Below, one piece after another: positions 24,201 to 47,825 of a DNA stretch of 64,000 nucleotides; the stretch's first letter is position 1; each line of letters starts with the position of its first letter. This DNA is from Alphaproteobacteria bacterium (GTDB lineage Bacteria > Pseudomonadota > Alphaproteobacteria > UBA2966 > CAIVPW01). Under the pieces are notes generated by a model, which searched no databases, was not told the origin of the DNA, and worked only from the letters and a program-made list of their open reading frames with translations. Where the stretch lies: assembly GCA_947481575.1 (NCBI GenBank), contig CANKGV010000014.1:2903-66902 (forward strand). Reading direction: 5' to 3'. Both the position numbers and the translations under genes were made by a program.

Positions 24201-24214
24201 GGCGCGCTAGCACC

Positions 24215-27016: not shown

Positions 27017-27171
27017 GGGTACGCTCAGGCTTGTGGATGTTTCGGGGACGACGGAACCCCGGCCCTCGCCTAGAGGGCCGGGCCGATAATTCGCATCCCC
27101 GCGAATGCCGAGCGCTGCGCCATGGGGCGCGTTGTAACAACTCGGCCGGAACGTGTCGAGAAATGACGCGG

Positions 27172-28116
27172 CTAGAGCGTCGCCGGAGTCACGGCCAAGA
27201 TGCCGCGCGCGGCGGTCGAATCGGCGTCCATCGCCTGGGTGAGTTCGGCCAGACCCGGGAACTTCATCTCGGGCCGCAGGAACGCGACCATCTGGACGCA
27301 TACGCGGCGGCCATAGAGATCGCCGGTGTAATCGAACAGGTGCGCCTCCAGCAGCGGTGCGCCGGCATCGAACATGGGGCGGATGCCGAGGCTGGCCACG
27401 GCGGGGCGCCAGTGCGGTTCATCGCCGACGCGGACGCGAACGGCATAGACGCCGAAGCGCGCTCGCAGGATCGGTCCCAGCGGCACATTGGCGGTGGGGT
27501 AGCCGAGGGTGCGGCCGCGGGCAGCACCGTGGCGGACGATGCCGGTGATTTCCCACCAGCGGCCGAGCTGCTGGGCGGCGGCGGCGGGATCGCCCGCTTC
27601 CAGCAGCGCGCGGATGCGGCGCGAGGCATAGGCTTCGCGCTCTGGTGAAGCCACCGGCGCCACCACGCTGAGGCCGAAGCCGTGGGTGCGGGCAAAGCGA
27701 TCCAGCACGGCGGTGTTGCCGCTGCGGCCGCGGCCGAAAACAAAATCGTGGCCGACGGCAACATGGGCGGCGCTGAGACCGTTCACCAGCACCCGGGTGG
27801 CAAATTCGTCCGCATCCAACCGCGAGAACGCGGGGGTGAAGTGGGCGACGAATAGGACATCGACTCCCGCTTCGGCGAGGTAGCGCGCCTTGAGGCGGAA
27901 CGGGGTAATGCGGAATGGGGCACCGGGGCGCAGAACGCCGCGCGGGTGCGGTTCAAACGTGAGTACGGCGGTGGGAGCATCCATGCGGCCGGCAGCTTCG
28001 CGCGCGGCGGCGATGACTTCGCGATGGCCCAAGTGGACACCGTCGAAGTTGCCGATGGCAACCGCGGCGCCGCGGGTGGCAGCGGGGGGCTGCAGGATGG
28101 TACGGACAATGCGCAT
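27172..28116 (-). CDS. ribF: Bifunctional riboflavin kinase/FAD synthetase
   Basis: IGNFDGVHLGH, TFEPHP, GHDFVFG, GRTLGYPTAN, LLEAHLFD, LRPEMKF. Upstream of ileS-lspA. Confidence 0.97.
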   Translation of the reverse strand: MRIVRTILQPPAATRGAAVAIGNFDGVHLGHREVIAAAREAAGRMDAPTAVLTFEPHPRGVLRPGAPFRITPFRLKARYLAEAGVDVLFVAHFTPAFSRLDADEFATRVLVNGLSAAHVAVGHDFVFGRGRSGNTAVLDRFARTHGFGLSVVAPVASPEREAYASRRIRALLEAGDPAAAAQQLGRWWEITGIVRHGAARGRTLGYPTANVPLGPILRARFGVYAVRVRVGDEPHWRPAVASLGIRPMFDAGAPLLEAHLFDYTGDLYGRRVCVQMVAFLRPEMKFPGLAELTQAMDADSTAARGILAVTPATL

Positions 28117-28171
28117 CGGCGCGGGCCATATAATGGCAGCGGTGAAGGCGGCGCAACCCGGGAGCCCGGAA

Positions 28172-29140
28172 ATGCCCAAAGCGATCGTGCAGCAAGCGGC
28201 GGGCGGGCCGGAAGTGCTGACCTACCAGGACGTGCCGATGCCGCGCCCTGGGCCCGGCGAGGTATTGGTGCGCCACACCGCCATCGGCGTGAACTTTGTC
28301 GATATCTACCGCCGCCGCGACACGACCGCGAAGTACCCGCTGATCCCCGGCGCGGAAGGCGTGGGCGTGGTGGAAGCGGCGGGGCCGGGCGTGAGATTGG
28401 TCAAGACCGGCGACCGGGTCGGCTATGCGACCCGCACGGGAGGCGCCTATGCCGAGTACCGGGCGTTGCCGGAGGGAGCCCTGATCCGCCTGCCGCCCGA
28501 TATCGCCGACGATGCGGCCGCTACCATTCTGCTCAAGGGGTTCACCGCCGAATACCTGCTGCACCGCACGCATGCGGTGCGGGCGGGCGAGACGATCCTG
28601 GTGCACGCGGCGGCGGGCGGCATGGGGCTGACCCTGTGCCGGTGGGCACGCGCGATCGGCGCGCGGGTGCTGGGCACGGTCTCAACGCCAGAGAAAGCTG
28701 CGGCGGCAACGGCTGCCGGCTGCGAATCGCCGATCCTGTACACGCGCGAGGACTTTGCCGCGCGGGCCAAGGAACTGACCGGCGGACGTTGCGTGGATGT
28801 GGTGTATGACGGGATTGGGCGCGCGACGTTTCTGCAATCACTCGACGCGCTGGCCGCGTTGGGACACCTGATTTCGTATGGGCAAGCATCGGGGCACCCG
28901 GACCCGTTCACCTTGACCCAACTGGCCGCGAAGTCGCTGACGGTGTCGCGCCCGACCCTGTTCGACTACACCGCCGATCGCGCGCGCTACGACGACATGG
29001 CGGTGCGGGTGTTCGACGCGGTACGGCGCGGGTGGGTCCAACCAACCGTGCAGCGGCGCATCGCGCTAAGCGATGCGGCCGAAGCCCACCGGGCGCTCGA
29101 AGCGCGCGAGACGATCGGCGCGACGGTGCTGATCCCGTAA
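28172..29140 (+). CDS. NADPH:quinone oxidoreductase (zeta-crystallin/Qor family)
   Basis: GGPEVL, AIGVNFVD..R, PGAEGVG, HAAAGGMG, VVYDGIG, HRALEAR.T.G. Confidence 0.92.
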   Translation: MPKAIVQQAAGGPEVLTYQDVPMPRPGPGEVLVRHTAIGVNFVDIYRRRDTTAKYPLIPGAEGVGVVEAAGPGVRLVKTGDRVGYATRTGGAYAEYRALPEGALIRLPPDIADDAAATILLKGFTAEYLLHRTHAVRAGETILVHAAAGGMGLTLCRWARAIGARVLGTVSTPEKAAAATAAGCESPILYTREDFAARAKELTGGRCVDVVYDGIGRATFLQSLDALAALGHLISYGQASGHPDPFTLTQLAAKSLTVSRPTLFDYTADRARYDDMAVRVFDAVRRGWVQPTVQRRIALSDAAEAHRALEARETIGATVLIP

Positions 29141-30287: not shown

Positions 30288-32216
30288 CTAGGCCCTCCCT
30301 GCTTCCGCCGCGGCGCGCAGAACCGCGGGGTGCTGCGAACGGTATTCCGGCACGAGTTCGGACAGGATGGCCAGGGTTTCCACGGCGTGACGCTGCAGCG
30401 CCGCGCGCTCCAGGCGCTCTAGCCGCGGGCGCAGCAGTTCGTAATCCATGGCGCGGGCGGTGCCGAACTGGATTCCGGGGTAGCGCGACGCGCGCAGGTT
30501 CTCGGCGGCGTGGAACAGCTCTTCGGCGAGCTTCTCGCCCGGGCGCAGGCCGGTGAATTCGATGGCAATGTCGACGCCGGGGCGCTTGCCGGACAGGCGG
30601 ATCATTTGGCGCGCCAGATCCTGGATGCGCACCGGTTCGCCCATATCGAGCACGAAGATCGTGTCGGACCCGGCTTCCTCGGCTGGGATCGCGGTAGCTT
30701 GCAACACCAGTTCGACCGCTTCGCGCACCGTCATGAAGTAGCGAGTGACGTCCGGATGAGTGACCTTGAGCGGACCGCCGGTGGCGAGCTGGCGTTCGAA
30801 CAGCGGAATCACCGAGCCGGTGGAGCCGAGTACGTTGCCGAACCGCACGGTGACGAAACGGGTAGGCGAAGCGCCACGGCTGAGCGCCTGCAGCACGATC
30901 TCGGCGGCGCGCTTTGTGGCGCCCATGACCGACGAGGCGTTGACTGCCTTGTCGGTGGAGATGAGCACCATCGCCGCGGTGCCGGCGGCGCGGCAAGCTT
31001 CGGCCACGTTGCGGGTGCCGATAGCGTTGGTCAGCACCGCTTCGTCCGGGTTCAACTCGGACAGCGGCACGTGCTTGAACGCCGCAGCGTGGAACACGAG
31101 TTCGGGGCGCTCGGTCTGGAACAGCGCCGATAGGCACTTGGGGTCGCGGACGTCGCCCAGGATCGCCGCACGCGGGATCGCTGGGAAGCGCTCGCCCACG
31201 TCCATGTCGATGGTGAACAGGTTGAACTCGCCGTTGTCGAACAGCACAAGGCGGGCTGGGCCGAACGCCGCCACCTGGCGCGCGAGTTCCGAACCGATGG
31301 TGCCACCGGCGCCGGTGACCAGGACGCGGCGGCCGGCGATCAGGCGCTGCATCGATTCGCGGTCCAACACTTTTTGCGGCCGGCCCAGGAGGTCTTCGAC
31401 ATCGACCTTGCGCACCTCGACAGCACCTTCGCGGAAATCGGTGAGCTTGGGCACGCGCGCGACGGTGAGGCCGAGCGCCTCGGCGGTTTCGATGAGCGCG
31501 CCGATGGTGGCGCGGTCGAGGTCGGCGGCAAACACCATGCGGTGCGGGCGGCGGCCACGGGCGGCGAGTTGTTCCACCACCGCGGGGATATCGCCGATCG
31601 CGCCCAGCACGCGGATGCCGCGAATGTCGCGGCCGATACGGCCGGGGCGGTCGTCGACGATGCCGACGACTTGGTAGGGCGCGGTGCGGGAGCGCGACAT
31701 TTCGCGGATGAACGCTTCCGCCGAGTCACCCGCACCGACCACCAACACCGGCACGCGCTGGCGGTCGAGGCGCTCGAAGCTCGTCCGCAGGTTGCCATCC
31801 TTCAGCGCGCGGTAGAGGAACCGCGGCACGGTTAGGAAAGCGATCAGGAGCGCCCAGGTGATGGGCAACGACGAGCGCGGGAAGGCTTCCAGGCGGTTGA
31901 CGACGAACAGTGCCGGCAGGAACAGCACTACGGCGATGGTGGTGGCGCGCACGATCGCGACCAGGTCGTTGAACGACGCGTAGTGCCAGATGCCGCGGTA
32001 CAGGCCTTGGGTCCAGAACACGACGCCGCACACCGCAGCAAACACGACGGTGCCCTGCCACAGGAAGCCGAATGCCTGGGGGGTGCCTTCGAGCAGGTAG
32101 CGGACTTGCAGCGCAGCCTCGAACGCGAGCGCCGCCATGACCAGGTCGTGCAACGCCACCGCGCCGATGCGGGCGTTGAGCTTGTATTTCATCTTGGCCT
32201 GGGGCCCAGAAGTCAT
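30288..32216 (-). CDS. Membrane-bound UDP-GlcNAc 4,6-dehydratase (CapD/WbpM/PglF family)
   Basis: N-terminal TM helices, VTGAGGTIGSEL, HAAAFKHVP, STDKAVN, MGATK, RFGNVLGSTGSV, MTVREAVELV, GLRPGEKL. Confidence 0.93.
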   Translation of the reverse strand: MTSGPQAKMKYKLNARIGAVALHDLVMAALAFEAALQVRYLLEGTPQAFGFLWQGTVVFAAVCGVVFWTQGLYRGIWHYASFNDLVAIVRATTIAVVLFLPALFVVNRLEAFPRSSLPITWALLIAFLTVPRFLYRALKDGNLRTSFERLDRQRVPVLVVGAGDSAEAFIREMSRSRTAPYQVVGIVDDRPGRIGRDIRGIRVLGAIGDIPAVVEQLAARGRRPHRMVFAADLDRATIGALIETAEALGLTVARVPKLTDFREGAVEVRKVDVEDLLGRPQKVLDRESMQRLIAGRRVLVTGAGGTIGSELARQVAAFGPARLVLFDNGEFNLFTIDMDVGERFPAIPRAAILGDVRDPKCLSALFQTERPELVFHAAAFKHVPLSELNPDEAVLTNAIGTRNVAEACRAAGTAAMVLISTDKAVNASSVMGATKRAAEIVLQALSRGASPTRFVTVRFGNVLGSTGSVIPLFERQLATGGPLKVTHPDVTRYFMTVREAVELVLQATAIPAEEAGSDTIFVLDMGEPVRIQDLARQMIRLSGKRPGVDIAIEFTGLRPGEKLAEELFHAAENLRASRYPGIQFGTARAMDYELLRPRLERLERAALQRHAVETLAILSELVPEYRSQHPAVLRAAAEAGRA

Positions 32217-33265
32217 GCGAACGGCGCGTCCTCGGGGCGAGTGGCGGTGGCGCGGCGCCCAAGGTACCACAACAGACCGGCGGTTAGGACCGCACCGACG
32301 CCCACGGCGGGCCATGCCAGGGCCGGGATCACGGTGGCCGCCAGCGCCAGCACGATCAGGAACGCATCGAGGTAGACCATCAGCAGCACCACGGCCGCGT
32401 GGTCGCCCATCGACGCGGCGGCGCGCTGGTAGAAGTGCTCGCGGTGAGCCCGCCACGGCGCCTGGCCGCGCAGCACGCGGCGCAGCAGAGTGATGCTCGC
32501 ATCCGCCACGAAGAACAGCGGCAGCAGGATGGCGGCGGCCCAGCCACCATGGGCGGCCAATTGCAGCAATAGCCAGCCCAGCAGGTAACCGAGCGGGATG
32601 CTGCCGACATCGCCCAAGAACACCCGCGCCGGGCGCCAGTTCCACAGTAGGAAGCCGAGCGCGGCGGCGGCGGCGGTGAGACCGTAGAGCGCATGGATCG
32701 GCGCCGCACCGAGCAGAACAGCGACGACGGCGATGCCGAAGCCGACGGCGATGGTTTGGGTGCCGGCAATACCGTCGATCCCGTCCATGAAGTTGAACAG
32801 GTTGATGAACCAAACCCAGATCACCGCCGCGAGCGTGAGTTCCGCCCAGGCCGGCAGGCCCAGAAAAAGCCCCGGCGGAATTGTGGCGAGGCCCCCAACC
32901 ACCGCCAGCACCTGCGCGGCGAGACGCACGAGGGGCGAGAGATTGCGGCGCAGGTCATCGATCCACGAGATCGCGCCCAGCGCGGCGGCGATCACCAAGA
33001 TGCGGTCGGGGGCGGCGGTGCCGGCGCCGAACGCGGCCGGGGCCGACAGCGCGGCGACACTCCACGTGAGCAGCAGGGCGACCACCGGACCGACGCCGCC
33101 GCCGTTGGGCGTCGGCACGGTGTGGCTGGAGCGGTGGTTGGGGCTTTCCAGCGCCCCGATCAAGCGCAGGAACCGCAACGTGAGGCCGGTGCCGAGCCAC
33201 GAAATCACGAACGCAGCGACGGTCAGGCCACCGAGCCATAGAGCGAGGTTGGCTTCCAGACTCAC
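32213..33265 (-). CDS. Polyprenyl-phosphate HexNAc-1-phosphate transferase (WecA/WbpL, MraY-like family)
   Basis: RSSHTVPTPNGGG, WIDD, NLFNFMDGIDG, VFLGDVGS, AHREHFYQR. Start GTG 33265. Confidence 0.92.
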   Translation of the reverse strand: MSLEANLALWLGGLTVAAFVISWLGTGLTLRFLRLIGALESPNHRSSHTVPTPNGGGVGPVVALLLTWSVAALSAPAAFGAGTAAPDRILVIAAALGAISWIDDLRRNLSPLVRLAAQVLAVVGGLATIPPGLFLGLPAWAELTLAAVIWVWFINLFNFMDGIDGIAGTQTIAVGFGIAVVAVLLGAAPIHALYGLTAAAAALGFLLWNWRPARVFLGDVGSIPLGYLLGWLLLQLAAHGGWAAAILLPLFFVADASITLLRRVLRGQAPWRAHREHFYQRAAASMGDHAAVVLLMVYLDAFLIVLALAATVIPALAWPAVGVGAVLTAGLLWYLGRRATATRPEDAPFA

Positions 33266-34437
33266 GGTTCGTCGGCCGGAGTGAGGGCGCGGGCGAGCAC
33301 GGCGGCGAGGCCGAGGCTGGCGAGCCACCAGTTCTGCCATAGGCCGTACGACGCCGCGCCGAAGCTGAGCGCGGTGGCCAACACTGCCGCAGCGGGCATG
33401 CGCGGGCGCGCCGGAAGCTTGGCGATGCCGATGCCGACGAGGGCGATCACTGCGGCCAACGCGAGGCCGCCGGGCAGGCCGAGTTCGAGCCACGCCTGCA
33501 GTGCGACGTCATGGGGATGCAGGGACAACGCTGGGCCGCCTTTGAATACCGGCACGTCACCGCCGGGGATGCTGCGGGACGCATCGAGGCCCCAGCCGAG
33601 CAGCGGCTTCTCGGCGATGCGCGCGGCCGCGAAGTCCCAGATATAGAGGCGGTGCAGGATCGACGAACGCTCCTCGGCCAGCGCCGAGCCGAACCGCTCC
33701 GGCGCAATGCTGCCCGCGACCAACGGCGCCACCAGCACGGCAACCATCGCCGCCAACGTGACGGCCACGACGGCGCGGCGGCCGCCCCACCACGCCAGCG
33801 CAAATGCAGCGCCGCCGGCGACGAGGGCGACACGGGCGGTGACACTTTCGCCAAGCGCCACGAGCGCGAAGGCGGCGAGCACCGCGGCGAGCGCGGCGAT
33901 CCGTGACGAGGGCCACAGCCGCGCCGCCAGGGGCCACACCATCAGGGTGAGCACGGTGAGGCCGGGGTTGAGCACGGTCAGTTCAAGGTGTTCGTCACCG
34001 GGCTTGGTCCCCCGGGCGAAGTTCGCGATCGGCAGGTCGCCCAGAATCTCGACGGCGAGCAGGATGCAGCCAAGGACGTAGCCGGCGACTGCGGCGCGCA
34101 GCACGATGGCCGCCCCGGACGCGTCGGGCCGGGCGGCGCCCCAGGCCACCAGGGCCGTCGCGAACAGGACCGCAAGCGACAGCGCCAAATGCAGTGCATC
34201 GGCGGGGACCACGGCCAACGGCGCAGTGACGGCCGCCCAGACGATCAGCGCCGCGAGTACCCACGCCACCGGCAGGCGCCCGAGGGCGGCGATGCCGCCA
34301 CGGAGCGCGGTCCACGCCAGCAGCGGCACGGCGGCGAGCAACAGCAGCGCGGTTTCGCCCTGGGAGGCGACGGCGCCGAGGGGCAGGAACATCAGTGCAG
34401 CAAACGCCACGGCATAGGTGCGGACGCGATCGCTCAT
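33262..34437 (-). CDS. O-antigen ligase (Wzy_C) family protein
   Basis: Multi-TM protein with RLYIW, PLLGWG and a C-terminal HPHDVALQAWLELG segment. Confidence 0.85.
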   Translation of the reverse strand: MSDRVRTYAVAFAALMFLPLGAVASQGETALLLLAAVPLLAWTALRGGIAALGRLPVAWVLAALIVWAAVTAPLAVVPADALHLALSLAVLFATALVAWGAARPDASGAAIVLRAAVAGYVLGCILLAVEILGDLPIANFARGTKPGDEHLELTVLNPGLTVLTLMVWPLAARLWPSSRIAALAAVLAAFALVALGESVTARVALVAGGAAFALAWWGGRRAVVAVTLAAMVAVLVAPLVAGSIAPERFGSALAEERSSILHRLYIWDFAAARIAEKPLLGWGLDASRSIPGGDVPVFKGGPALSLHPHDVALQAWLELGLPGGLALAAVIALVGIGIAKLPARPRMPAAAVLATALSFGAASYGLWQNWWLASLGLAAVLARALTPADEP

Positions 34438-35582
34438 GCGGCTTCCGGCCAAGCGCGGCCGGCCACCGCGCGGTACGCGGCGAGCGAGTCCGCGACGAAC
34501 GCGCCGACGGAAAACTCCGCCACCGCCCGTTCCCGGCCGCGCCGGGCCATCGCCGCGCGGAGCGCCGGGTCGGTGAGCAAGCGGCGGAGCGCGGCGGCCA
34601 GCGCGACGCCATCGCGCGCAGAAACCAGCAGGCCGTTGTCGCCGTCCTTCACCACTTCGCGGCACCCGGGCACGTCGGTGGTGACGATGGCGCGGCCACA
34701 TGCGGCCGCTTCGATCAGCACGCGCGGCAGGCCCTCGCGGTAGGACGGCATGCACACTACGTGACAGCGCGCGAACTCGGCTGGCATGTCGGTGGCGAAC
34801 CCGCGCCATTCGACCACCCCTTCCCGCTCCCACCCGCGGATCGCGGCCTCGCCGATGTCGGTGGGATTGTCGGGGTCGGTGCGGCCCGCCAGGCGGAAGG
34901 TGGCAGCGATGCCTTCGGACTTCAGAATACGCGCCGCTTGGACGAACTCGCGCGCGCCTTTGTCGCCAATCACCCGCGCCGGAAACAGCACGACCGGCGG
35001 GCCCGCGGGTTCGGGCATGGGGGCGAATTGCGCCATGTCGACGCCGCAGCCGCGGATCATCACAACGGTGCCGGGATCGACCAGACGGCCGCGGAGAAAC
35101 AGGTTCAGGTCGTCCGGGTTCTGGAAGATCACCCGCGCGTTGGGGTGGCCGAGGGCGAACCCGTATAGGCGCTTTACCAGGGCGCGCTGCAGGCTGGCGA
35201 TGCCGCCCTGGATCAGAAACAGGTAGCCCAATCCGGTGATCGCGTGGACCACGCCGGGCACGCGGCGCAGGCGCGCGATGGCGCCGCCATACAGCACTGG
35301 CTTCATCGTGACCGCATGCACGATGCCGGGGCGCAGTTCGCCAACGAGCGCCCAGATGCGAGCGATCAGCTTGAGTTCACCGAGCACGGCGCGCGCGCCG
35401 CGGCGGAGCGGGATTTCGTGCAGCGTGACGCCGGCGGCGCCAATGATCTCCCAAGCAGCCGCATCGAACGGAAGTGCGACATGGACATCGCACCCCGCGG
35501 CCCGCGCTGCCTTTGCAACGGCGAGCCGGTGGGTGACGAAGAACGGCGCATCGTTCAGGAGGAACAAAAGCCGCAGCGTCAC
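34434..35582 (-). CDS. GT4 family glycosyltransferase (WbpU/CapM-like)
   Basis: FFVTHRL, VTMKPVLYG, ITGLG, IFQNPDD, GCGVD, PSYREGLPRVLIEA, TTDVPGCRE. Confidence 0.92.
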   Translation of the reverse strand: MTLRLLFLLNDAPFFVTHRLAVAKAARAAGCDVHVALPFDAAAWEIIGAAGVTLHEIPLRRGARAVLGELKLIARIWALVGELRPGIVHAVTMKPVLYGGAIARLRRVPGVVHAITGLGYLFLIQGGIASLQRALVKRLYGFALGHPNARVIFQNPDDLNLFLRGRLVDPGTVVMIRGCGVDMAQFAPMPEPAGPPVVLFPARVIGDKGAREFVQAARILKSEGIAATFRLAGRTDPDNPTDIGEAAIRGWEREGVVEWRGFATDMPAEFARCHVVCMPSYREGLPRVLIEAAACGRAIVTTDVPGCREVVKDGDNGLLVSARDGVALAAALRRLLTDPALRAAMARRGRERAVAEFSVGAFVADSLAAYRAVAGRAWPEAA

Positions 35583-36427
35583 CGCCGCACTCCGACGTAG
35601 TTGTAATAGAGGAACAGCGGCAGGATGGCGGCGGTGCCGGGCGCGGTTTCGAAGGCGCTAAAGCGGTCGAACACCGGGCGGTTCGGGAACATGCGGAAGT
35701 GCCGAATGCTCTCGCACACGACACCCGCATCTGCGAACAGGCGGCGCAAATTGGCCGCGGTAGTGACGCGCTCCACGCCGTAGGGGTGGGCACGGCCATC
35801 GTCGCCGGTGAGTTGGATCACGCGGGGCAGACCGCGGCGGATCAGCAGCTCCAGTTGCAACGCCGGGTTCCAGGCGTTGGCTTCCGAGATCACCAGGTGA
35901 CCGCCGGGAGCGAGCAGCGAGGCGATCTTACGCACGATCTGTTCGCGCGGCTCGAGATGGTGGAACGTTTGCTCCATCCAGATCAGGTCGTACTGCGCCC
36001 CGGCCGGCAGGTCGAATACCGAGGCGAACTGGAACCGGCACCGCTGGGCGTGGCCGAGCCGCTGCATCACCGCGAGACGTGCCTGCGCGCCGGCCACGCG
36101 GTCGGCGCGCAGGTCGATGCCGGTAACATCGCCACCTTGAAGCGCCAGCCACAACGATTCGGTGCCGAGGCCGCAGCCAACTTCCAGCACCCGCGCGCCG
36201 GGCTGGGCACGCAACAGGGCTTCGGCTTCGGCGATCTGGGACGCGTAGTAGCGCCGGGTGCGGCCGGTGAACGAGCGCTGGAAGCTGCCGTAGTAGTGCC
36301 GGAACGTCTCCGCGGCGGCGCCGTCCAACAGGCCGCCCTCCAACCACACCGACAGGAACGCAGCGATGTCCGGCGCGCCGGCGAGCCGGGCGGCAGCATC
36401 GGTGGGTGCGGGCACCGGCACCGTCAC
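35579..36427 (-). CDS. Class I SAM-dependent methyltransferase
   Basis: VLEVGCGLG motif I, YDLIW, TFHHL, PGGHL. Start GTG 36427 approximate. Confidence 0.85.
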   Translation of the reverse strand: MTVPVPAPTDAAARLAGAPDIAAFLSVWLEGGLLDGAAAETFRHYYGSFQRSFTGRTRRYYASQIAEAEALLRAQPGARVLEVGCGLGTESLWLALQGGDVTGIDLRADRVAGAQARLAVMQRLGHAQRCRFQFASVFDLPAGAQYDLIWMEQTFHHLEPREQIVRKIASLLAPGGHLVISEANAWNPALQLELLIRRGLPRVIQLTGDDGRAHPYGVERVTTAANLRRLFADAGVVCESIRHFRMFPNRPVFDRFSAFETAPGTAAILPLFLYYNYVGVRR

Positions 36428-37794
36428 GGCGCTGCGGTGATACGGAAGCACGAGCGCGCCGTCATACGCTCGGCACGCACGGACCCGAACCGGCCGGTGG
36501 CGCGGCGGAACTGGGCCAGCGCTTCGCGCACCTCGCCCACCGCGATGCCGGGGAACTTTTGCCGCGCGTAGGCATCCGCACGTGGGCCGACGCGGATGCG
36601 GCGCGTCAGCGGGGCAAGGGTTGCGGTGAACCGGTCGCCAAGCAAGCGCGCGGCGTCGCCTGGGCCGGGGCGATAGTTGGTTGGCTCGACCCCTAGTTCG
36701 ACGAGGCCATCGGCGACCCGTTCGGCGGCGAGCCGGCCGTCCACGGCGGTGATGTAGCGCGCGGCTTCTCCCGGTGCCCGAGGCGCGGGCGCGAGGATGC
36801 CATCGATGCCCTGGTGCAGCAGGGCAACCAATTCGTCTTCGGTGAACGCCTCGCGGCTGACGGCGTGGGGCAAATGGGAATCCAGCACATCGTCGGTGGC
36901 CGGCCGGTAGGCGATGACGGGGCGTCCCAACAGGTACGCCTCGACGCCGGTGGTGCAGCTGTTGTGCACGAGCACATCGGCGCCGGCGATCCAGGGGACC
37001 ACCGAGTCTTCGAACGCTACCGTTACGTTCGCGACGCCGGCCGTCTCGCGGCGCCATTCGTCGTGATTCTCCGACGGGTGCGGACGCACGACGATGTGGT
37101 GATCGGGGAAGGCGCGGCTCAGCACCGGTACCGCTGCAACGAACCCGCGGTACAGGACTTCGAGGTAGTCACGCCAGCGGCGGAAGAACGTGAGTTCCGC
37201 TTCGGAGGCGATAGTGCCGCGCTTCTGGAGCGCTTCGATCCAGAAGTTGTAGCCCATGAAATGGTTGTAGCGGCTGAAGTTGGTAGCGACCAACACGTAG
37301 CGGCCGAAGCGGCGTTGCAGTGCCGCCACCTCGGGCGCGAACACGCCCCGCAATTCCGGGCGCAGCACATCGAAGCGAGGGTTGCCGGTGACGCGAATCT
37401 TGCTCGCTGCTTCGGGCGCCTTGCGGAGTACGTCCGCCGCTTGGACCCCACCCCAAGCGAAGAAGCGTTCGGCGACCGCCAGCGAGTCGTTCGAAATGCG
37501 CTCATGGAGATAGGTATCGGCATCGCGGTAGACGAGGCCTTCTTCGCAGCACGCCACAACATGATTTCCCATGGCGCGGAGTTGGCCGAAGCCCTTGGTC
37601 TTGGTGCGCGAGACGCTTTTGTCGAGGTACACGCCGCGCGGCAGGCGGGCGACATTCTTGACCATGCTGTTCTGGTCGCCGAGCACGACGTCATAGCCGC
37701 GCTCGGCCATTACCGCCGCTTGCAGCACCTTGGCGTGGAACTCCCTCGCCTTGGTTTCAATCGGCAGCAGGAGCCAGGGACGGACCTTGGACAT
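36424..37794 (-). CDS. Surface carbohydrate biosynthesis protein (TIGR04396-like, predicted GT-B fold)
   Basis: LPIETKAREFHAK, CEEGLV, FAWG, TGNPRFDVL, VVRPHPSE, HNSCTTGVEAYLLGRPV. Confidence 0.75.
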   Translation of the reverse strand: MSKVRPWLLLPIETKAREFHAKVLQAAVMAERGYDVVLGDQNSMVKNVARLPRGVYLDKSVSRTKTKGFGQLRAMGNHVVACCEEGLVYRDADTYLHERISNDSLAVAERFFAWGGVQAADVLRKAPEAASKIRVTGNPRFDVLRPELRGVFAPEVAALQRRFGRYVLVATNFSRYNHFMGYNFWIEALQKRGTIASEAELTFFRRWRDYLEVLYRGFVAAVPVLSRAFPDHHIVVRPHPSENHDEWRRETAGVANVTVAFEDSVVPWIAGADVLVHNSCTTGVEAYLLGRPVIAYRPATDDVLDSHLPHAVSREAFTEDELVALLHQGIDGILAPAPRAPGEAARYITAVDGRLAAERVADGLVELGVEPTNYRPGPGDAARLLGDRFTATLAPLTRRIRVGPRADAYARQKFPGIAVGEVREALAQFRRATGRFGSVRAERMTARSCFRITAAP

Positions 37795-37857: not shown

Positions 37858-39354
37858 GTGTTGTTCAACTCCTACGAGTTCCTGCTCGCCTTCCTGCCGC
37901 TGACGCTGGCCGGGTACTTTCTCTTGGCAGGCCGCGCGGGACGGCGCGGACAAGTTCTGTGGCTGATTGCCGCGTCCCTGTTCTATTACGCCTGGGGTAA
38001 CCCCTGGCTGCTGGCGCTGCTGGGCACGTCCACCGCAGGCAACTACCTGATCGCAGGGTGGATCGCGCGGCTGCGGGACGGGTCCCCAACCGGCGCCCGG
38101 CTGGTGACGGCTGCAGGCGTCAGCCTCAACCTCGCCGTGCTGGGGTACTTCAAGTACTCGAACTTTCTGGTGACCAACGTAGCAGAGATGACCGGCCTGC
38201 CGCTGACGATGAGCACCGTGGTGTTGCCGCTGGGCATTTCGTTCATCACGTTTCAGAAGATCGCCTATCTGGTGGACGTATACCGGCGCGTGACCGTGGA
38301 GCGCGATTTTCTGAACTTTGCGCTGTTCGTGTCGTTCTTCCCCCAACTGATTGCCGGGCCCATCGTGCACCACAGCGAGGTGATGCCGCAGTTCGCTGCC
38401 CGCACCCGCGACAAATGGGACGGCTTGGCGGTCGGCGGCATGATGTTCGTCCTGGGGCTGTTCAAGAAAGTGGCAATCGCCGACCCGCTGGGACTGGAGG
38501 CTTCGACGATCTTCAACGCCGTGGCCCACGATGGCCTGGAACCGATGGTGCTACAGGCCTGGGCGGGCGTGGCTTGCTACACCTTCCAGATTTACTTCGA
38601 CTTCTCCGGCTATTCCGACATGGCAGTCGGCATCGCCCGCATGTTCGGCATCCGCTTGCCGATGAACTTCGCCTCCCCCTACCAAGCGGCGTCGATCGTC
38701 GACTTCTGGCGGCGCTGGCACATCAGCCTGTCGCGGTTCCTGCGCGACTATTTGTATGTACCGCTGGGCGGCAACCGCCGCGGGCCGGCGCGCCGCTATC
38801 GGAACGTGTTTCTCACGATGGTGTTGGGCGGACTGTGGCACGGCGCGGCGTGGACGTTTGTGCTGTGGGGTGCTTTGCACGGGCTGCTGATCCTGATCAA
38901 CCAGGCGTGGACCGACCAGGTGACGCGGCGGTGGGGCATCGTGCTGCCGCGGGCCGTGGCATGGCCACTGACATTTGCGCTGGTGGCGGCGTGCTGGGTG
39001 CCGTTTCGCGCCGACACCGTCGCTGCGGCCGGAACCATGTACGCCGGAATGATCGGGTTGAACGGGATCGAACTCTCGAAGGCCGCGGTGGGCCTGCTGG
39101 ACCCCCGCAGTTCCCTGGCCCTGCTGGTGTTCGCCGGCGCGGTCGCGTGGTTCGCGCCCAACACCTATCAAGTGCTTGGAGAGTTTAACCCGGCGCTGCC
39201 GACCCGGGGCTATCCGGCGACCGCCATCACGGCCGCTCCGCGCTGGCTGCGGTGGTCGCCGCGCTGGTGGACTGCCGTGGTGGGCGGAGCGCTGTTCACC
39301 GTGTGCATTCTTAGGCTCACCGATGTCTCCGAATTCATCTACTTCCATTTCTGA
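37858..39354 (+). CDS. MBOAT family O-acyltransferase (AlgI/PatA/DltB-like)
   Basis: MLFNSYEF, LPLGISFITFQ, FFPQLIAGPI, YFDFSGYSDMA, FWRRWHISLS, GLWHG. Confidence 0.95.
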   Translation: MLFNSYEFLLAFLPLTLAGYFLLAGRAGRRGQVLWLIAASLFYYAWGNPWLLALLGTSTAGNYLIAGWIARLRDGSPTGARLVTAAGVSLNLAVLGYFKYSNFLVTNVAEMTGLPLTMSTVVLPLGISFITFQKIAYLVDVYRRVTVERDFLNFALFVSFFPQLIAGPIVHHSEVMPQFAARTRDKWDGLAVGGMMFVLGLFKKVAIADPLGLEASTIFNAVAHDGLEPMVLQAWAGVACYTFQIYFDFSGYSDMAVGIARMFGIRLPMNFASPYQAASIVDFWRRWHISLSRFLRDYLYVPLGGNRRGPARRYRNVFLTMVLGGLWHGAAWTFVLWGALHGLLILINQAWTDQVTRRWGIVLPRAVAWPLTFALVAACWVPFRADTVAAAGTMYAGMIGLNGIELSKAAVGLLDPRSSLALLVFAGAVAWFAPNTYQVLGEFNPALPTRGYPATAITAAPRWLRWSPRWWTAVVGGALFTVCILRLTDVSEFIYFHF

Positions 39355-39361
39355 GGCGCGG

Positions 39362-40276
39362 ATGCGCACGTGGTGGCTGGTGCTGCTGGCGTGCTGTCTG
39401 CTGCCCGCCGCTGCCGCGGGCACGTTGACGGCGTGGGGTGTGCTGTCGGGCCAAGCGCAATTGCGCGTATCCGAATTGCGCACGCTGCAGATGGGCAAGC
39501 TGAACGATCCCACCCACGCCATGGAGTTCGTATTTGTGGGGGATAGTTCGCTCGGCAACGCCATCGACGCCGCAACCTGGGAGCGGCTGAGTGGACGACC
39601 CACGGCCAATCTGGCGCTGACCGGCGCATTCGGCCTGGCGGGTTCGTACAACATGATCCGCAGGGCGGTGCGCGCCCACGGCACGCGCTACGTAGTGATC
39701 ATGCAGGCCGCCGATATGATGGCGCGCGACGTGAGCTATCAGGGGTTCGCTCTCACGTTCAGCGCACGCGACTGGTACCAAGTATCGCCGGTCGACCTGG
39801 TAGCGTCGTTCCTAAATTGGACGCTGCTGGAGCAGTCGCTGGAGGGCTTGCTCGGCACCGCCGACCGGCCCGAAGCGGTGACCGGCGATTACATCGCCCA
39901 AGGGCCCCACGCCGCCCCGGAAGACATCGTCGCGGAGCCACTGACACCTTCCAGCATCAATCCGCGCCAGGAGTACTTCCTGCGAAAGATCGCGGAATAC
40001 TGCGCCAGCGCGGGTGTGACGTGCATCTATGCTCATGGGCCGGTATACGAAGGGACGTGCATTGCCGCAGCCGGATACTTGACGGAGGTCAACGCCCGCA
40101 TCGGTGCTGCGGGACTAACGTTGGCGGAGGGCACGCCTCTGTGCATGCCCGCCGGCGATGTTGGAGACGGAACCGACCATGTGCGGCCGGAACTAAAGCA
40201 GGCTTACACCGAACGGCTATTCGGGCTGATTGCGCCGCTTGCGTTCGGGACCGCACGGGCCGTTCGACGGGATTGA
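39362..40276 (+). CDS. Periplasmic SGNH-like partner of the MBOAT (AlgJ/PatB-like)
   Basis: N-terminal TM, FVGDSSLG (GDS block), and a C-terminal DGTDH. Immediately follows the MBOAT. Confidence 0.65.
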   Translation: MRTWWLVLLACCLLPAAAAGTLTAWGVLSGQAQLRVSELRTLQMGKLNDPTHAMEFVFVGDSSLGNAIDAATWERLSGRPTANLALTGAFGLAGSYNMIRRAVRAHGTRYVVIMQAADMMARDVSYQGFALTFSARDWYQVSPVDLVASFLNWTLLEQSLEGLLGTADRPEAVTGDYIAQGPHAAPEDIVAEPLTPSSINPRQEYFLRKIAEYCASAGVTCIYAHGPVYEGTCIAAAGYLTEVNARIGAAGLTLAEGTPLCMPAGDVGDGTDHVRPELKQAYTERLFGLIAPLAFGTARAVRRD

Positions 40277-40291
40277 AGGGGTACGCAACCG

Positions 40292-41281
40292 ATGTCTGCC
40301 GCAGCGATCGCTAAGAAGGTCGTGCCAACCCGGATCTACCGCAAGCTGTCGAAGCTGCGGCACTATCCGGCACACCTAGGGGCGTGGCTGTTCGACGACA
40401 CGATGGATGGTGCGCATTCTTCGATGCGGCTGTCGCAGCGCATGAACCCGCGCGACTTTGCCCGGCGCCGCGCCGCGATGCTCGAAGTTGGGGCCAAGAG
40501 CCCCGACCGGATCAGCTTTGCGGCGGGGCATTTGATCGCCAACTGGGGCGCTAAGCCCGTGGTTGCCGCGGCCGTGGCGCGCGGCCAGGCGTTTGCCGAG
40601 ACGCTCGACTTCCCGGCCATGGCGGCCAAGGCCAGCAAGCCGTTCCTGTTGTCGGCGCCGATCGACCCAAACGACCCCGCCAACGCGCCGATCTACGACT
40701 TGGCCGCCGATCCGCTGTTGTTGGCACCGATCGCGAGCTACTTGGGTTCCTATCCGGTCCTGAATGGCGCCCGCATTTGGTATTCGCCGAACACCTACCT
40801 GGAGGCGAACCGCAGCCAATTCTTCCACCTCGACGACGAGGACTACCGGCAGATCAAGTGCTACGTGCTGCTGGACGAGGTCGACTCCGACACCGGCCCG
40901 TTCACGCTGATTCCGGCCGACGCCAGCCGCGCCATCTATGGCGTGCTGGGCAACCTGGGCCTGAGCCAGAAGCGCAATCAGAAGTTCACCGACGAGAAGT
41001 TCGCCGAAGCCAAGGCGCTGGCCGGGCAAGGCACGGTGCGGCCGGTGGAGATCGTCGGCCCGACCGGGACCGTCGGCATGGTGGACACCAACAACTGCTA
41101 CCACTTCGGCAGCCGCCCAGGGAAACGCCGCCGACTGTTGTTGTTCTTGCACTACTACAGCGCATTTTCGCGCGAGCTGCCGTTTTGGAACCGCCGCTAC
41201 CGCAAAGTTCCCGGCGGCCCCGAAGCGCAACTGCTGAACGGGCTATCGCACCTGTCGATCGACGGTATGCGCGGCTACTAG
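40292..41281 (+). CDS. PhyH-like Fe(II)/2-oxoglutarate-dependent oxygenase
   Basis: FHLD (HxD), GPFTLIP, GTVGMVDT..CYHFG (distal His), RRLL. Confidence 0.75.
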   Translation: MSAAAIAKKVVPTRIYRKLSKLRHYPAHLGAWLFDDTMDGAHSSMRLSQRMNPRDFARRRAAMLEVGAKSPDRISFAAGHLIANWGAKPVVAAAVARGQAFAETLDFPAMAAKASKPFLLSAPIDPNDPANAPIYDLAADPLLLAPIASYLGSYPVLNGARIWYSPNTYLEANRSQFFHLDDEDYRQIKCYVLLDEVDSDTGPFTLIPADASRAIYGVLGNLGLSQKRNQKFTDEKFAEAKALAGQGTVRPVEIVGPTGTVGMVDTNNCYHFGSRPGKRRRLLLFLHYYSAFSRELPFWNRRYRKVPGGPEAQLLNGLSHLSIDGMRGY

Positions 41282-41285: not shown

Positions 41286-42563
41286 CTAGCGCCGCGCTTC
41301 TAACTCCGCCAGCACAGCCGCAGCCACGCGAGCGCCCGACTTGCCGTCGGGGTTGCCGGCCCAATGGGTCAGCAGGCGAGCGCGTTCCGGCGGCAACTCC
41401 GCGGTGACGGGTTGCGGGTTGCGCACCCCGTGCAGCAAGCGGGCGTATAGGTCGTCCTCGGAGTCGGCGTGGTCGACCGCACCGGCGAGATCGAGGAAGT
41501 ACGGCGCGGTGCGTTCTTCGACCGCTTCGAAGAAGCGCGGCACGATCACGCGCTTGCCTGCCGCCATCGCTTCCAGCAACGCCGTGGTGGTGAAGCCGCA
41601 GATCACGGTGGCACCCATGATCAGATCCTGGGGATCGCCGCCGACCATGACCCGGAGGTTCGGCCCGGGGCGCAGGGCACCCTCGGCGCCGGTGAGCTTC
41701 AGCCACTTCAGCAGGTCGCCCTTGCCCTTCACGACGACGTCGATGTCGGGGTTGTCCATGGCAAGGCGGGTGACGGCACGGTGGCTGGCCGCTACGAGGC
41801 GGTTCCACGAGAGCTCGTCGAGACCTTCGCCCAAGTGCTCCAGGCGGCCTTCGGGCGCGCCCGGCTTGCGGGGCAGCGAAGGCAGGCCGGTCTTCGGATG
41901 GAACGAGAAGAACAACACGCGCGGCCGGGCGGGCTGTCCTTGCGGGCGCGCAGCAGCCGCGACCCGCCAATGGTGGATGCGGTCCAAGCGGGGCATGCCG
42001 GAAACAGTGATGCGCGATTCCGGCACGATGCCGGCGTAGAGTTGGATGTCGCGCTCGATGTTGTTGTAGACGCACACGCGCGCGCCGGGGAACGGCTGGC
42101 GGCGGGTTTCGTAGAGATAGCGGAAGAACCCATCGAGCCCGGGCGTCTTCAGCGCCTCTTTGTGCATCGCGATCACCGGCGTGCCGCTCGCCTGCACCGC
42201 CGCCGCGAACTCCTGTTCGGCGTGGTACGCGAAGTTGCCGGTGAGTACTGCCTGGGCGCGCGCAACGCGCTGCACCGGGCGCCAAGCATCCGCCCAGAAC
42301 TTGCGCAGCTCCAGCTTGGCCGCATCAAGGCTGGCGGGCGCCGACTTGTAGTTGTTGTCATCCACCCACGGCGGCAGGAATGCCGGGTACGGGGCTTTGA
42401 CGAAATCGCGGCCAAAGCCGTACAGCGCGAAGCGCGGGTCGCCGCCGAACGCGGCCAGCAGATCCTCGGTGAACCCCGCCTTCGGCAGGCCGAGCAGGCG
42501 ATAGGTTCCTGCGGACTGGTGGGCGATGGGTTCGACCATCGTGGCCATGACACGGCCCGCCAT
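41286..42563 (-). CDS. Hypothetical glycan biosynthesis protein, predicted GT-B fold
   Basis: HKEAL, VSGMPRLD, FTTTALLEAMAAGKRV resemble GT-B capsule/epimerase-like proteins. Start uncertain (42563 or a nearby Met). Confidence 0.6.
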   Translation of the reverse strand: MAGRVMATMVEPIAHQSAGTYRLLGLPKAGFTEDLLAAFGGDPRFALYGFGRDFVKAPYPAFLPPWVDDNNYKSAPASLDAAKLELRKFWADAWRPVQRVARAQAVLTGNFAYHAEQEFAAAVQASGTPVIAMHKEALKTPGLDGFFRYLYETRRQPFPGARVCVYNNIERDIQLYAGIVPESRITVSGMPRLDRIHHWRVAAAARPQGQPARPRVLFFSFHPKTGLPSLPRKPGAPEGRLEHLGEGLDELSWNRLVAASHRAVTRLAMDNPDIDVVVKGKGDLLKWLKLTGAEGALRPGPNLRVMVGGDPQDLIMGATVICGFTTTALLEAMAAGKRVIVPRFFEAVEERTAPYFLDLAGAVDHADSEDDLYARLLHGVRNPQPVTAELPPERARLLTHWAGNPDGKSGARVAAAVLAELEARR

Positions 42564-42669
42564 CGTGGCGCTGCGGCGGCGCGCGAGCGCGCCCAACAAC
42601 GGTGGCAACAAGCGTATCCCAGCGCCCTGACGAAAGGTGGAGAACGGGCCGCGGGTTTCGGGCTCGGCA

Positions 42670-43329
42670 TCAAGCGTCAAGTTCGAACACCGTACGTTTG
42701 AGGAATCGGTCGCCGGTACGCCGCCAGGTGCGGCGGAAATGCCCGGCCAAGAAATCGCAGTTCCGCCCGCGGCCATCGACGATCACGCGCGTGCCCGGCG
42801 CGAGGCGGCTCTCCAAGTCGAGGACGTCCACCGCCACCTTGCGATCGGGGGTAAATTCGGGCCCGTCGAGATACACCAGTTCCGGCGCCACCGGCGGCAC
42901 GTCACGGTAGCGCCAGGCGCGGGTGCCGTCGTAGTCGACCGGAATGGCCGCACTGGCGACGATGCTGACATAAGGGCGCAGGGCCGCCGGGACATCCCGC
43001 GCCGCCACATCGGCCCACCGCGCATCGGATTCCAGGGAAACGATGCGCCCGGGCGCACCGCCATCGCGGGCGTTGTCGGCCAGCGCGCGCGCCATTACCA
43101 GCGTGGAGCACCCAGACCCGAATTCGAGCACCATGGCGGGGTGCTTGGCGCGCACCGCGGAATACAGGAACCACAGGTCGGCCCACACGGGCGGGATGGC
43201 ATCGCGGGGCCGCCCGGCGAACAAGTCTGTCAGACCGAGTTCCCGCATGCGCCGGTGCGCGCGCCAGTTTAGCACGGCGCGGCCGGCGCCCGCGTAGACA
43301 CGCGAGGCTGCGTTCCGCACAGGGTTCAT
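42670..43329 (-). CDS. Class I SAM-dependent methyltransferase (Methyltransf_24-like)
   Basis: VLEFGSGCST, IVSLESD, LVYLDGP, IVDGR. Confidence 0.78.
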   Translation of the reverse strand: MNPVRNAASRVYAGAGRAVLNWRAHRRMRELGLTDLFAGRPRDAIPPVWADLWFLYSAVRAKHPAMVLEFGSGCSTLVMARALADNARDGGAPGRIVSLESDARWADVAARDVPAALRPYVSIVASAAIPVDYDGTRAWRYRDVPPVAPELVYLDGPEFTPDRKVAVDVLDLESRLAPGTRVIVDGRGRNCDFLAGHFRRTWRRTGDRFLKRTVFELDA

Positions 43330-47823: not shown

Positions 47824-47825
47824 CG

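Follow-up and report, generated by a model that had tools for sequence, protein, structure and literature searches.

A TIGR04396-family protein as a candidate CMP-nonulosonate glycosyltransferase in an alphaproteobacterial glycan locus

Which protein transfers the sugar at a locus that makes a CMP-activated nonulosonic acid (NulO) but encodes no recognisable sialyltransferase? To our knowledge, transfer is the least understood step in the assembly of bacterial sialic-acid-like glycans, the biosynthetic genes being easy to recognise, and only a handful of transferases for legionaminic (Leg), pseudaminic (Pse) and other nonulosonic acids are known, namely Maf and FlmG for flagellins, KpsS1 (GT118) and the enzymes of Tannerella forsythia. 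The question arises in a 64,000-nucleotide stretch of DNA from an alphaproteobacterium (the window), where the first-pass annotation had described a neuABC locus lacking a sialyltransferase and had proposed a protein of an uncharacterised family as the missing enzyme. The description of the locus was sound: the NeuC-type match exceeds its cut-off, the NeuB-type and PseF/NeuA-type matches fall below theirs, and no sialyltransferase or Capsule_synth model matched any ORF scanned between 29 and 56 kb. The genes concerned are as follows.

30288-35582, minus strand: GT4 glycosyltransferase, Wzy_C-domain protein (ligase/polymerase type), WecA/MraY-type initiating phosphotransferase and PglF/WbpM-type 4,6-dehydratase, the rest of the target operon
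35579-36430, minus strand: SAM-dependent methyltransferase, directly downstream of the target in the same operon
36424-37794, minus strand: candidate CMP-nonulosonate glycosyltransferase of the TIGR04396 family (the target), 456 aa, soluble, predicted GT-B fold
37858-41281, plus (opposite) strand: MBOAT acyltransferase and two unannotated ORFs
41286-42569, minus strand: paralogous GT-B protein, second candidate transferase, no Pfam or NCBIfam family
46085-46807, minus strand: CMP-nonulosonate synthetase of PseF/NeuA type (95.7 bits, below cut-off), which would make the presumed donor
46804-50497, minus strand: Gfo/Idh/MocA oxidoreductase, TPP-dependent enzyme and D-2-hydroxyacid dehydrogenase
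51213-52400, minus strand: NeuC-type hydrolysing UDP-GlcNAc 2-epimerase (372.8 bits, above cut-off)
52379-53662, minus strand: NeuB-type nonulosonate synthase (280.6 bits, below the NeuB cut-off of 399.65)
53428-55194, minus strand: MsbA/PglK/HepA-type ABC exporter

The oxidoreductase, TPP enzyme and dehydrogenase module is kept beside neuA in many related loci and probably modifies the nonulosonate, and an ABC exporter is often found about 2 kb from TIGR04396 genes in such loci. The plus-strand ORFs part the target from its paralogue here; most related loci are arranged differently.

The target ORF begins with ATG, has a coding-type GC3 of 0.82 and encodes a protein with no transmembrane segments. 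Its assignment to TIGR04396 by the first-pass annotation was correct, with 366.5 bits (E 2.2e-109) over profile positions 1-426 of 427, the curated cut-off for the whole profile being 125 bits; the model is named "surface carbohydrate biosynthesis protein". The family comprises 7315 clusters at 50% identity, and a literature search for TIGR04396 returned no matches. Neither phmmer with the single sequence nor a search with the family profile found a meaningful match among PDB chains, and the best 150 family representatives contained no informative domain fusion; because the extra domain of the sole long protein among them (P0313, 945 aa) is an FG-GAP beta-propeller, it is uninformative on the donor.

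The family is nevertheless not the orphan it had been taken for. As judged by NCBIfam HMM scores, the target matches NF046086 (BFO_1060 family glycosyltransferase) with 85.2 bits (E 4.8e-24) over residues 9-307, corresponding to profile positions 3-300 of 365, and 58 of 58 TIGR04396 members tested match it as well (best E 7.8e-36). Because 85 bits is below the curated cut-off of 200, the target is a relative rather than a member of NF046086, and the same is true of all 58 of these relatives. In T. forsythia, Tanf_01245 and TFUB4_00887 of this family are, by knock-out, the transferases for Pse5Am7Gra and a Leg derivative, respectively, of the protein O-glycan; in the mutants the terminal Pse or Leg residue alone is missing, the CMP-Pse and CMP-Leg pools persist, and complementation brings the sugar back (PMC5420450). 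Because TIGR04396 thus has functional relatives, "new" was an overstatement.

Conservation was assessed across 58 homologues (30-75% identity) drawn from 10 or more phyla, and four segments of the target stand out.

37537-37548, minus strand: C83-E84-E85-G86, a D/E-D/E-G-type motif directly after an N-domain beta-strand
37069-37092, minus strand: V235-V-R237-P238-H239-P240-S-E242 (VVRPHPSE), a (K/R)XHP motif where the first beta-strand of the C-domain ends
36916-36966, minus strand: H277-N-S-C280-T281-T282-G-V-E285...P292-V (HNSCTTGVEAYLLGRPV), residues 277-293, at a C-domain strand-to-helix turn
36547-36570, minus strand: Y409-A-R-Q-K413-F-P-G, conserved, within the helical extension at the C-terminus (residues ~370-456)

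Both VVRPHPSE and HNSCTTGVEAYLLGRPV, to which attention had already been drawn, are present, at residues 235-242 and 277-293 of the 456-aa ORF. E84 and E85 are invariant (58/58), as are R237, P238 and P240; H239 is kept in 53 of 58 homologues and is A, C or S in the other five. The earlier emphasis on the HP motif is therefore borne out for the (K/R)XHP signature as a whole and not for strict retention of its histidine. T282 and K413 are also invariant, and C280 and E285 are kept in 57 and 56 of the 58, respectively. The R237-P238-H239-P240 segment matches (K/R)XHP, through which sialyl- and Kdo-transferases bind CMP at its cytosine (PMC12887879), and E84-E85-G86 matches the D/E-D/E-G motif of bacterial sialyltransferases. 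We propose that the former is a cytosine/phosphate binding site for CMP, that the HNSCTTGVEAYLLGRPV turn may bind phosphate and ribose, and that C83-E84-E85-G86 may provide a general base or acceptor site. An isolated HP dipeptide would be expected by chance; its conservation is not. Because SpsB of Bacillus subtilis carries DEG and HP motifs and is yet dispensable for Leg transfer (PMC7439481), motifs alone are weak evidence. The suggested resemblance of HNSCTTGVEAYLLGRPV to a segment of KpsS and KpsC found no counterpart in a sequence-level link to either protein.

The AF2 model (pLDDT 92.8) has a GT-B fold with a full-size N-terminal Rossmann domain (strands 7-12, 35-40, 55-58, 78-82, 110-113 and 133-135). 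Comparison with GT38, GT52, GT80, GT99 and GT107 structures, which had been suggested as a check, gave no support, none of them appearing among the best 50 Foldseek matches in the PDB. Those 50 are UDP-GlcNAc 2-epimerases, TagF and HepE, led by the 2-epimerases (E 5e-9, TM about 0.5), with TagF at E 2e-7 and TM 0.50-0.52.

Gene neighbourhoods were examined in flanks of up to 10 kb. Full flanks, of at least 9 kb to either side, were available for 51 species, and in 39 of these NeuA, NeuB or NeuC homologues lie within 10 kb. All 48 NeuA-like matches fit the PseF model and all 33 NeuB-like matches fit NeuB/PseI models. In nine loci from several phyla, the target-family gene comes immediately after neuA, neuB or neuC in the same orientation, and on a plasmid of Azospirillum thermophilum it lies inside a legionaminic acid operon, with a start/stop overlap with neuB. 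The expected co-occurrence with neuAB was thus found in most loci and not in all: in 12 of the 51 the 10-kb flanks contain no NulO gene, and re-searching the loci without such genes with HMMs built from the 33 NeuB-like and 48 NeuA-like sequences still found none. One TIGR04396 locus is flanked by housekeeping genes with no NulO genes nearby, and a homologue with 63% identity has aroA, cmk, rpsA and lpt genes around it. Frequent occurrence apart from a CMP-ulosonate pathway had been named as grounds for abandoning the proposal, and these loci go part of the way toward it.

Such loci are one reason to consider that the protein is a GT-B transferase for another cytidine-activated donor, either CMP-Kdo (from the housekeeping KdsB) or, as with TagB/TagF, a CDP-polyol in a phosphotransferase reaction. 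Loci without nearby NulO genes keep the trio of TIGR04396 gene, paralogue and ABC exporter, and a close homologue lies near lptC/lptA/lptB and a KdsD-like SIS gene; moreover, (K/R)XHP is shared with Kdo transferases, TagF is among the structural matches, and the T. forsythia relatives have been noted to have a TagB-type domain. However, neither Glyphos_transf (PF04464, the TagB/TagF model) nor Capsule_synth matches the target in Pfam even at E up to 10, and the likeness to TagF is structural only. The target-family gene also sits directly within neuA/neuB/neuC operons in many phyla, the validated relatives transfer Pse or Leg, and the locus in the window itself makes a CMP-nonulosonate. On balance we consider another cytidine-activated donor unlikely, although it is the strongest of the alternatives.

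The paralogue raises a different possibility. This second related GT-B gene (41286-42776 if its start lies as far upstream as it may) was overlooked in the first-pass annotation, and because it is a second candidate at the locus, the target is not necessarily "the" missing transferase. The paralogue could be the true nonulosonate transferase, with the TIGR04396 protein adding another residue or working alongside it as partner or polymerase. HHalign finds the two families homologous (95%, E 2.4e-8), the paralogue lies right next to the TIGR04396 gene in 29 related loci, sometimes in two copies, and it too matches NF046086 weakly (E 4.6e-6). That match is far weaker than the target's, however, and the paralogue lacks the HP and E-E-G residues, having K-x-K in place of R-P-H-P and H-K-E in place of E-E-G. 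It is also much rarer (69 matches in a word-indexed search vs more than 1100 for the target) and is missing from distant loci in which TIGR04396 is fused to neuA operons, so this exchange of roles appears slightly less probable still than a different donor.

That the protein is no transferase at all, but a nucleotide-sugar 2-epimerase or hydrolase-like enzyme of sugar biosynthesis, is very improbable: the leading Foldseek matches, a weak Pfam Epimerase_2 match over residues 118-169 (E 0.025), a precomputed PF02350 label on the homologue P0063 and a TGNPRFD segment in which, from the HHalign output, we see a resemblance to TGN..D of the epimerases speak for it, but the Epimerase_2 (PF02350) score of 13.9 bits is below the gathering score of 30.6, a genuine NeuC accompanies the target-family gene in 31 loci rather than being replaced by it, the related T. 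forsythia knock-outs keep a complete CMP-sugar pool, and the invariant Arg and Pro of the cytosine-binding motif favour CMP over UDP. We dropped it as the main reading because profile-profile alignment with the NeuC family (HHalign, default and greedy) gave a probability of only 15-16% and no supported alignment of the N-domain. WecB-type epimerases, sought in 80 loci for a better epimerase profile, were not found.

A GT-B enzyme acting on a CMP-activated nonulosonate is therefore the best-supported reading, given the BFO_1060-family homology, the R-P-x-P within (K/R)XHP, E-E-G, the GT-B fold and the linkage to neuA/B/C, and the product of 36424-37794 is probably such a glycosyltransferase on the combined strength of homology, motifs, predicted fold and gene linkage. 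The earlier proposal of a missing transferase survives to this extent, without its novelty and with a rival candidate at the same locus. From the family membership, T. forsythia homology, fold, conservation and linkage described above, we infer the donor, acceptor, residue roles and stereochemistry. The protein would be a soluble glycosyltransferase of two Rossmann domains (GT-B), with a CMP-activated nonulosonic acid from the NeuC, NeuB and cytidylyltransferase of the locus as its donor, and would transfer that sugar to a lipid-linked oligosaccharide. This acceptor would be built by the products of 30288-35582, a WecA-like enzyme starting it and the GT4 enzyme of the same operon extending it, and the cell-surface glycan, once complete, would leave through the ABC transporter, with the Wzy_C protein handling it. 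Within the enzyme, CMP would be bound in the C-domain, with R237 reading the cytosine against which P240 stacks, the phosphate held by H239 and the S/T-rich turn (279-282) and the ribose by E285, while E84/E85 of the N-domain, facing the cleft, may activate the acceptor hydroxyl.

More tentatively, TIGR04396 and BFO_1060 proteins may together form a large glycosyltransferase family that uses CMP-nonulosonates through a full-size GT-B fold and an R-P-x-P cytosine clamp, the "catalytic" His being dispensable; in alphaproteobacteria the enzyme might form an obligate pair with the degenerate paralogue (H-K-E/K-x-K) to make a nonulosonate-containing repeat, and loci without NulO genes might use CMP-Kdo. 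We know of no CAZy family that yet includes the TIGR04396 and BFO_1060 proteins. If TIGR04396 were given a function, thousands of proteins now called "hypothetical" or "surface carbohydrate biosynthesis" in bacteria and some archaea would gain a name, and it would offer new glyco-engineering enzymes for attaching rare nonulosonates and a sequence marker predicting which environmental and host-associated microbes display them.

Among known systems, the closest solved folds are those of the UDP-GlcNAc 2-epimerases (Epimerase_2) and TagF, whose conserved loops are placed similarly; the sequence relationship to them is not significant, however, a different nucleotide is expected, and the genuine NeuC is in the same locus. 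With the retaining GT99 WbbB, GT107 KpsC, GT118 KpsS1 pseudaminyltransferase and GT140 KrkA, the target would share a CMP-activated keto-acid donor and does share (K/R)XHP, but in retaining ulosonic-acid transferases the GT-B fold is strongly modified and its N-domain reduced (PMC12887879). The target falls outside this group (Capsule_synth and related models; reduced N-domain), since its modelled N-domain is full-size and it has neither a Capsule_synth match nor evidence for an Asp nucleophile. The inverting GT38 polysialyltransferase, GT52 Lst/NST and GT80 PmST1 resemble it in the GT-B fold, the expected CMP-sugar donor, the topologically equivalent D/E-D/E-G and (K/R)XHP motifs (E84-E85-G86 and R237-P238-H239-P240) and an S/T-rich turn that follows a strand of the C-domain; they differ in showing no detectable sequence homology (PDB sequence and profile searches; Pfam at E up to 10, where the sub-threshold Epimerase_2 was the only match), in their absence from the best 50 structural matches and in that the His of the TIGR04396 family is not strictly conserved. 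Tanf_01245 and TFUB4_00887 are nearer: they show significant homology over ~300 residues across both Rossmann domains (58 of 58 members), a similar size (442-445 vs 456 aa), no transmembrane segment and a gene that adjoins both a methyltransferase and the CMP-NulO pathway. Unlike them, the target belongs to a sister family below the BFO_1060 cut-off and to another phylum and glycan system (an Und-P-type locus that includes WecA, Wzy_C and an ABC exporter), its last ~90 residues, which carry the Y-x3-K motif, occur in TIGR04396 only, the NF046086 match stopping at 307, and its donor is probably a Neu/Leg-type sugar with other modifications. Because TIGR04396 is a distant relative of these Pse and Leg transferases, we regard this as a useful assignment and not as a new kind of enzyme.

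The product of the TIGR04396-family gene at 36424-37794 (-) is probably a CMP-nonulosonate transferase, a reading that rests mainly on HMM-level homology to a knock-out-validated family and on operon linkage rather than on motifs. The ORF begins with ATG and encodes 456 aa, and its GC by codon position (0.70/0.49/0.82) is that of real genes of the window (67% GC). Both peptides quoted in the first-pass annotation are present, VVRPHPSE as residues 235-242 and HNSCTTGVEAYLLGRPV as residues 277-293. The TIGR04396 profile is covered in full at 366.5 bits (cut-off 125), and no hydrophobic stretch of the protein is of sufficient length to cross a membrane (highest 19-residue Kyte-Doolittle mean 1.19). 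Many spurious long ORFs caused by high GC overlap this gene, such as a 492-aa ORF at 35579-37057 (-) whose 3' part is a real methyltransferase and whose 5' part overlaps the target in another reading frame; ORF lists made mechanically in the window need codon-position GC for sorting.

The BFO_1060 family profile, NF046086 ("BFO_1060 family glycosyltransferase"), matches target residues 9-307, covering both Rossmann domains, with an E of 4.8e-24 and 85 bits, under the model cut-off of 200. Each of the 58 homologues taken from the 80 fetched species loci matches TIGR04396 as well as NF046086 (best NF046086 E 7.8e-36); judged by these profile matches, the homology extends across the family and is not peculiar to the target. 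BFO_1060 is the orthologue, in Tannerella forsythia strain 92A2, of Tanf_01245/TFUB4_00887 (PMC5420450). Deletion of these two T. forsythia genes removes the terminal Pse5Am7Gra or legionaminic acid (Leg) derivative alone from the protein O-glycan, while the mutants retain the fully modified CMP-sugar and the sugar returns on complementation (PMC5420450). Because these homologous genes were tested by knock-out, TIGR04396 has a functional anchor, albeit a genetic one only. Our literature search found no mention of TIGR04396; a Herbaspirillum genome paper notes a gene of this kind downstream of neuABC, speculating without tests on a role in Neu5Ac transfer.

NCBIfam and Pfam scans of the ORFs neighbouring the target outline a surface-glycan locus at ∼30 to 56 kb of the window. 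The target opens a minus-strand operon, which continues with genes for a SAM methyltransferase, a GT4 glycosyltransferase, a Wzy_C-domain protein, a WecA/MraY-type initiating transferase, and a PglF/WbpM-type dehydratase. The features bearing on the argument are as follows.

35579-36430, (-), SAM methyltransferase, direct neighbour of the target
41286-42776, (-), second GT-B-like gene, unannotated
within 41-55 kb, (-), methyltransferases, polysaccharide deacetylase, sulfotransferase
46085-46807, (-), PseF/NeuA-type cytidylyltransferase
within 41-55 kb, (-), Gfo/Idh/MocA oxidoreductase, TPP enzyme, D-2-hydroxyacid dehydrogenase
51213-52400, (-), NeuC (372.8 bits, exceeding the cut-off)
52379-53662, (-), NeuB-type synthase
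within 41-55 kb, (-), MsbA/PglK-type ABC exporter
55714-56733, MarR-type EPS-associated regulator ORF, after the exporter

No scanned ORF of the glycan locus matched sialyltransferase or KpsC/KpsS models, which bears out the starting premise of the first-pass annotation that the locus has a CMP-nonulosonate pathway but no recognisable transferase.

The minus-strand module at 46085-53662 (cytidylyltransferase, Gfo/Idh/MocA oxidoreductase, acetolactate-synthase-like TPP-dependent enzyme, D-2-hydroxyacid dehydrogenase, methyltransferase, NeuC, and NeuB) is conserved in ∼20 loci of Alphaproteobacteria, Desulfobacterota, and Acidobacteriota, usually with a sulfotransferase; no aminotransferase was seen. 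The module suggests an unusual modified nonulosonate. A plus-strand cassette of an MBOAT (DltB/AlgI-like) acyltransferase and two ORFs (37858-41281) begins just 63 bp from the target start codon and separates the target from its paralogue, the second GT-B gene; the cassette ORFs at 39176-40276 and 40292-41281 have no Pfam or NCBIfam match. The locus is flanked by housekeeping genes (17777-29140: mutL, M16-type peptidase, lspA, ileS, quinone oxidoreductase), so the window is chromosomal; the closest relatives come from freshwater alphaproteobacterial MAGs (76% identity in one fetched locus, L001).

A scan of species-representative genomes yielded 80 TIGR04396 loci, 51 of them with ≥9 kb on either side. 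As for the neuAB co-occurrence proposed as a check, 39 of these 51 full-flank loci (76%) carry a NeuA-, NeuB- or NeuC-like ORF within 10 kb, and in the other 12 no nonulosonic acid (NulO) gene was found within 10 kb even with family HMMs. The neighbours are true nonulosonate genes and not merely KdsB, because all NeuA-like ORFs match the PseF model (48/48) and all NeuB-like ORFs match NeuB/PseI models (33/33). A NulO gene lies ≤3 kb from the TIGR04396 gene in 27 of 80 loci, and in nine (Desulfobacterota, Bacillota, Lentisphaerae, Verrucomicrobiota, Kiritimatiellia) the TIGR04396 gene comes directly after neuA (7), neuB (1) or neuC (1) on the same strand. On an Azospirillum thermophilum plasmid it sits within a legionaminic acid operon (LegB, LegC, NeuC, acetyltransferase, nucleotidyltransferase, cytidylyltransferase, SDR, methyltransferase, TIGR04396, NeuB), its stop overlapping the neuB start. 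The 10-kb radius underestimates linkage, since the window's own neuB and neuA lie 15 kb and 8.3 kb from the target.

CMP-Kdo synthesis is a housekeeping function in Gram-negative bacteria, and the alternative that some TIGR04396 members use CMP-Kdo as donor is kept alive by the exceptions, among them the 12 loci lacking NulO genes in the 10-kb range. In L081, a marine Rhodospirillaceae contig with a 48%-identical homologue (10001-11359), a compact glycan locus between housekeeping genes holds sulfotransferases, methyltransferases, an ABC exporter, AsnB, GT4, and Wzy_C, with no NulO genes. In L082, from freshwater MAGs, a 63%-identical homologue (10001-11368) is flanked by aroA-cmk-rpsA on one side and methyltransferase, spermidine synthase, and lpt genes on the other, nonulosonate genes being absent within 10 kb.

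Residue conservation was assessed in 58 TIGR04396 sequences of 30-75% identity (Alpha-, Gamma-, and Deltaproteobacteria/Desulfobacterota, Acidobacteriota, Bacillota, Planctomycetota, Lentisphaerae, Verrucomicrobiota, Actinomycetota, Chloroflexota, Patescibacteria, and one Methanoregulaceae archaeon). Invariant positions include E13, K15, R17, E18, E84, E85, R140, D142, R237, P238, P240, T282, and K413; G86, C280, T281, E242, and E285 are nearly invariant. A 945-aa protein from the representative search (P0313) is a family member with a ∼500-aa C-terminal FG-GAP beta-propeller, either a real fusion or a mis-called one. Target R237-P238-H239-P240 conforms to the (K/R)XHP motif common to sialyltransferases and retaining Kdo transferases, in which Lys/Arg hydrogen-bonds cytosine and Pro packs against the ring (2026 structural paper, PMC12887879). 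Because the Arg and Pro positions are invariant, this motif supports a CMP donor better than the bare "HP" originally invoked, whose His is apparently dispensable: five members (L052, L055, L064, L075, L076), all beside neuA/neuB genes, have A, C or S there. These five come from Lentisphaerae, Verrucomicrobiota/Opitutia, and related MAGs, with TIGR04396 genes at about 10001-11350. Similarly, E84-E85-G86 conforms to the D/E-D/E-G motif of bacterial sialyltransferases. Motif matches alone are nevertheless weak evidence, as Bacillus subtilis SpsB has a TagB domain with DEG and HP motifs, yet Leg transfer to the spore surface does not need it (PMC7439481).

The paralogue (41286-42569, start possibly upstream, to 42776) falls in no Pfam or NCBIfam family and weakly matches NF046086 (E 4.6e-6); HHalign finds it homologous to the target family (95%, E 2.4e-8, 272 columns). 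Its AlphaFold2 model is a confident GT-B fold (pLDDT 92.2) with epimerase-type top matches, as for the target. It directly adjoins a TIGR04396 gene in 29 instances, at times in two copies, and its homologues are all labelled "hypothetical". In the alignment an invariant H-K-E replaces the target's E-E-G and K-x-K replaces R-P-H-P, and the paralogue is not present in distant loci where the TIGR04396 gene is fused to neuA operons. We consider it improbable that the paralogue, and not the target, is the nonulosonate transferase of this locus; the two may add two residues or work jointly.

The target model (AlphaFold2, 39-sequence alignment; pLDDT 92.8, pTM 0.91) comprises two Rossmann-like domains followed by a helical extension at the C-terminus, which closes with a beta-hairpin. 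C-E-E-G directly follows N-domain strand 78-82, R-P-H-P ends the first C-domain strand (233-238), and N-S-C-T-T-G forms the turn from strand 274-277 to helix 281-288; by analogy with other GT-B enzymes these are presumed to be cleft-facing donor/acceptor positions. Foldseek against the PDB confirmed the GT-B fold without pointing to sialyltransferases in particular: UDP-GlcNAc 2-epimerases fill almost all of ranks 1-39 (E 5e-9 to 2e-7, TM ∼0.5), TagF appears from rank 40 onward (E 2e-7), and GT38/52/80/99/107, the anticipated relatives, are not among the best 50 PDB matches listed. Those leading matches would favour a 2-epimerase-like enzyme instead of a transferase, which we rank low because 31 loci carry a genuine NeuC as well and CMP-sugar persists in the T. 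forsythia mutants; moreover, Pfam Epimerase_2 reaches 13.9 bits on the target versus a gathering score of 30.6, and a profile-profile comparison against 21 aligned NeuC sequences gave a probability of 15-16%, in the C-domain only.

The observed family relations, residue conservation, and gene linkage, together with the modelled GT-B fold, lead us to infer a cytoplasmic transferase that would bind CMP-nonulosonate in its C-domain, with R237 touching and P240 stacking on cytosine, H239 and the 279-282 turn holding the phosphate, and E285 holding the ribose. E84/E85 would act on a hydroxyl group of the acceptor, an undecaprenyl-linked oligosaccharide presumably made by the WecA-like and GT4 enzymes of the locus, and methylation, ABC-transporter export, and handling by the Wzy_C protein would follow.

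A SAM methyltransferase repeatedly adjoins TIGR04396 genes, as it does the T. forsythia Leg transferase gene; it is directly adjacent in seven loci (phmmer) and on the Azospirillum plasmid. Such neighbours lie at:

L082, 11390-12268, SAM methyltransferase
L083 (a further fetched locus), 10553-11527, SAM methyltransferase

At 50% identity the family comprises 7315 clusters (E up to 1e-3) or 2736 (E up to 1e-30), with no annotation beyond "surface carbohydrate biosynthesis protein" or "hypothetical". A nonulosonate-transferase assignment is useful and, as far as our literature search shows, unpublished. The first-pass annotation saw in this "uncharacterised family" the missing transferase; the CMP-NulO transferase reading is supported, but the related T. 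forsythia transferases were already known genetically and the paralogue is a second candidate. The assignment adds to a known kind, the T. forsythia-type NulO transferases, and does not establish a separate one.
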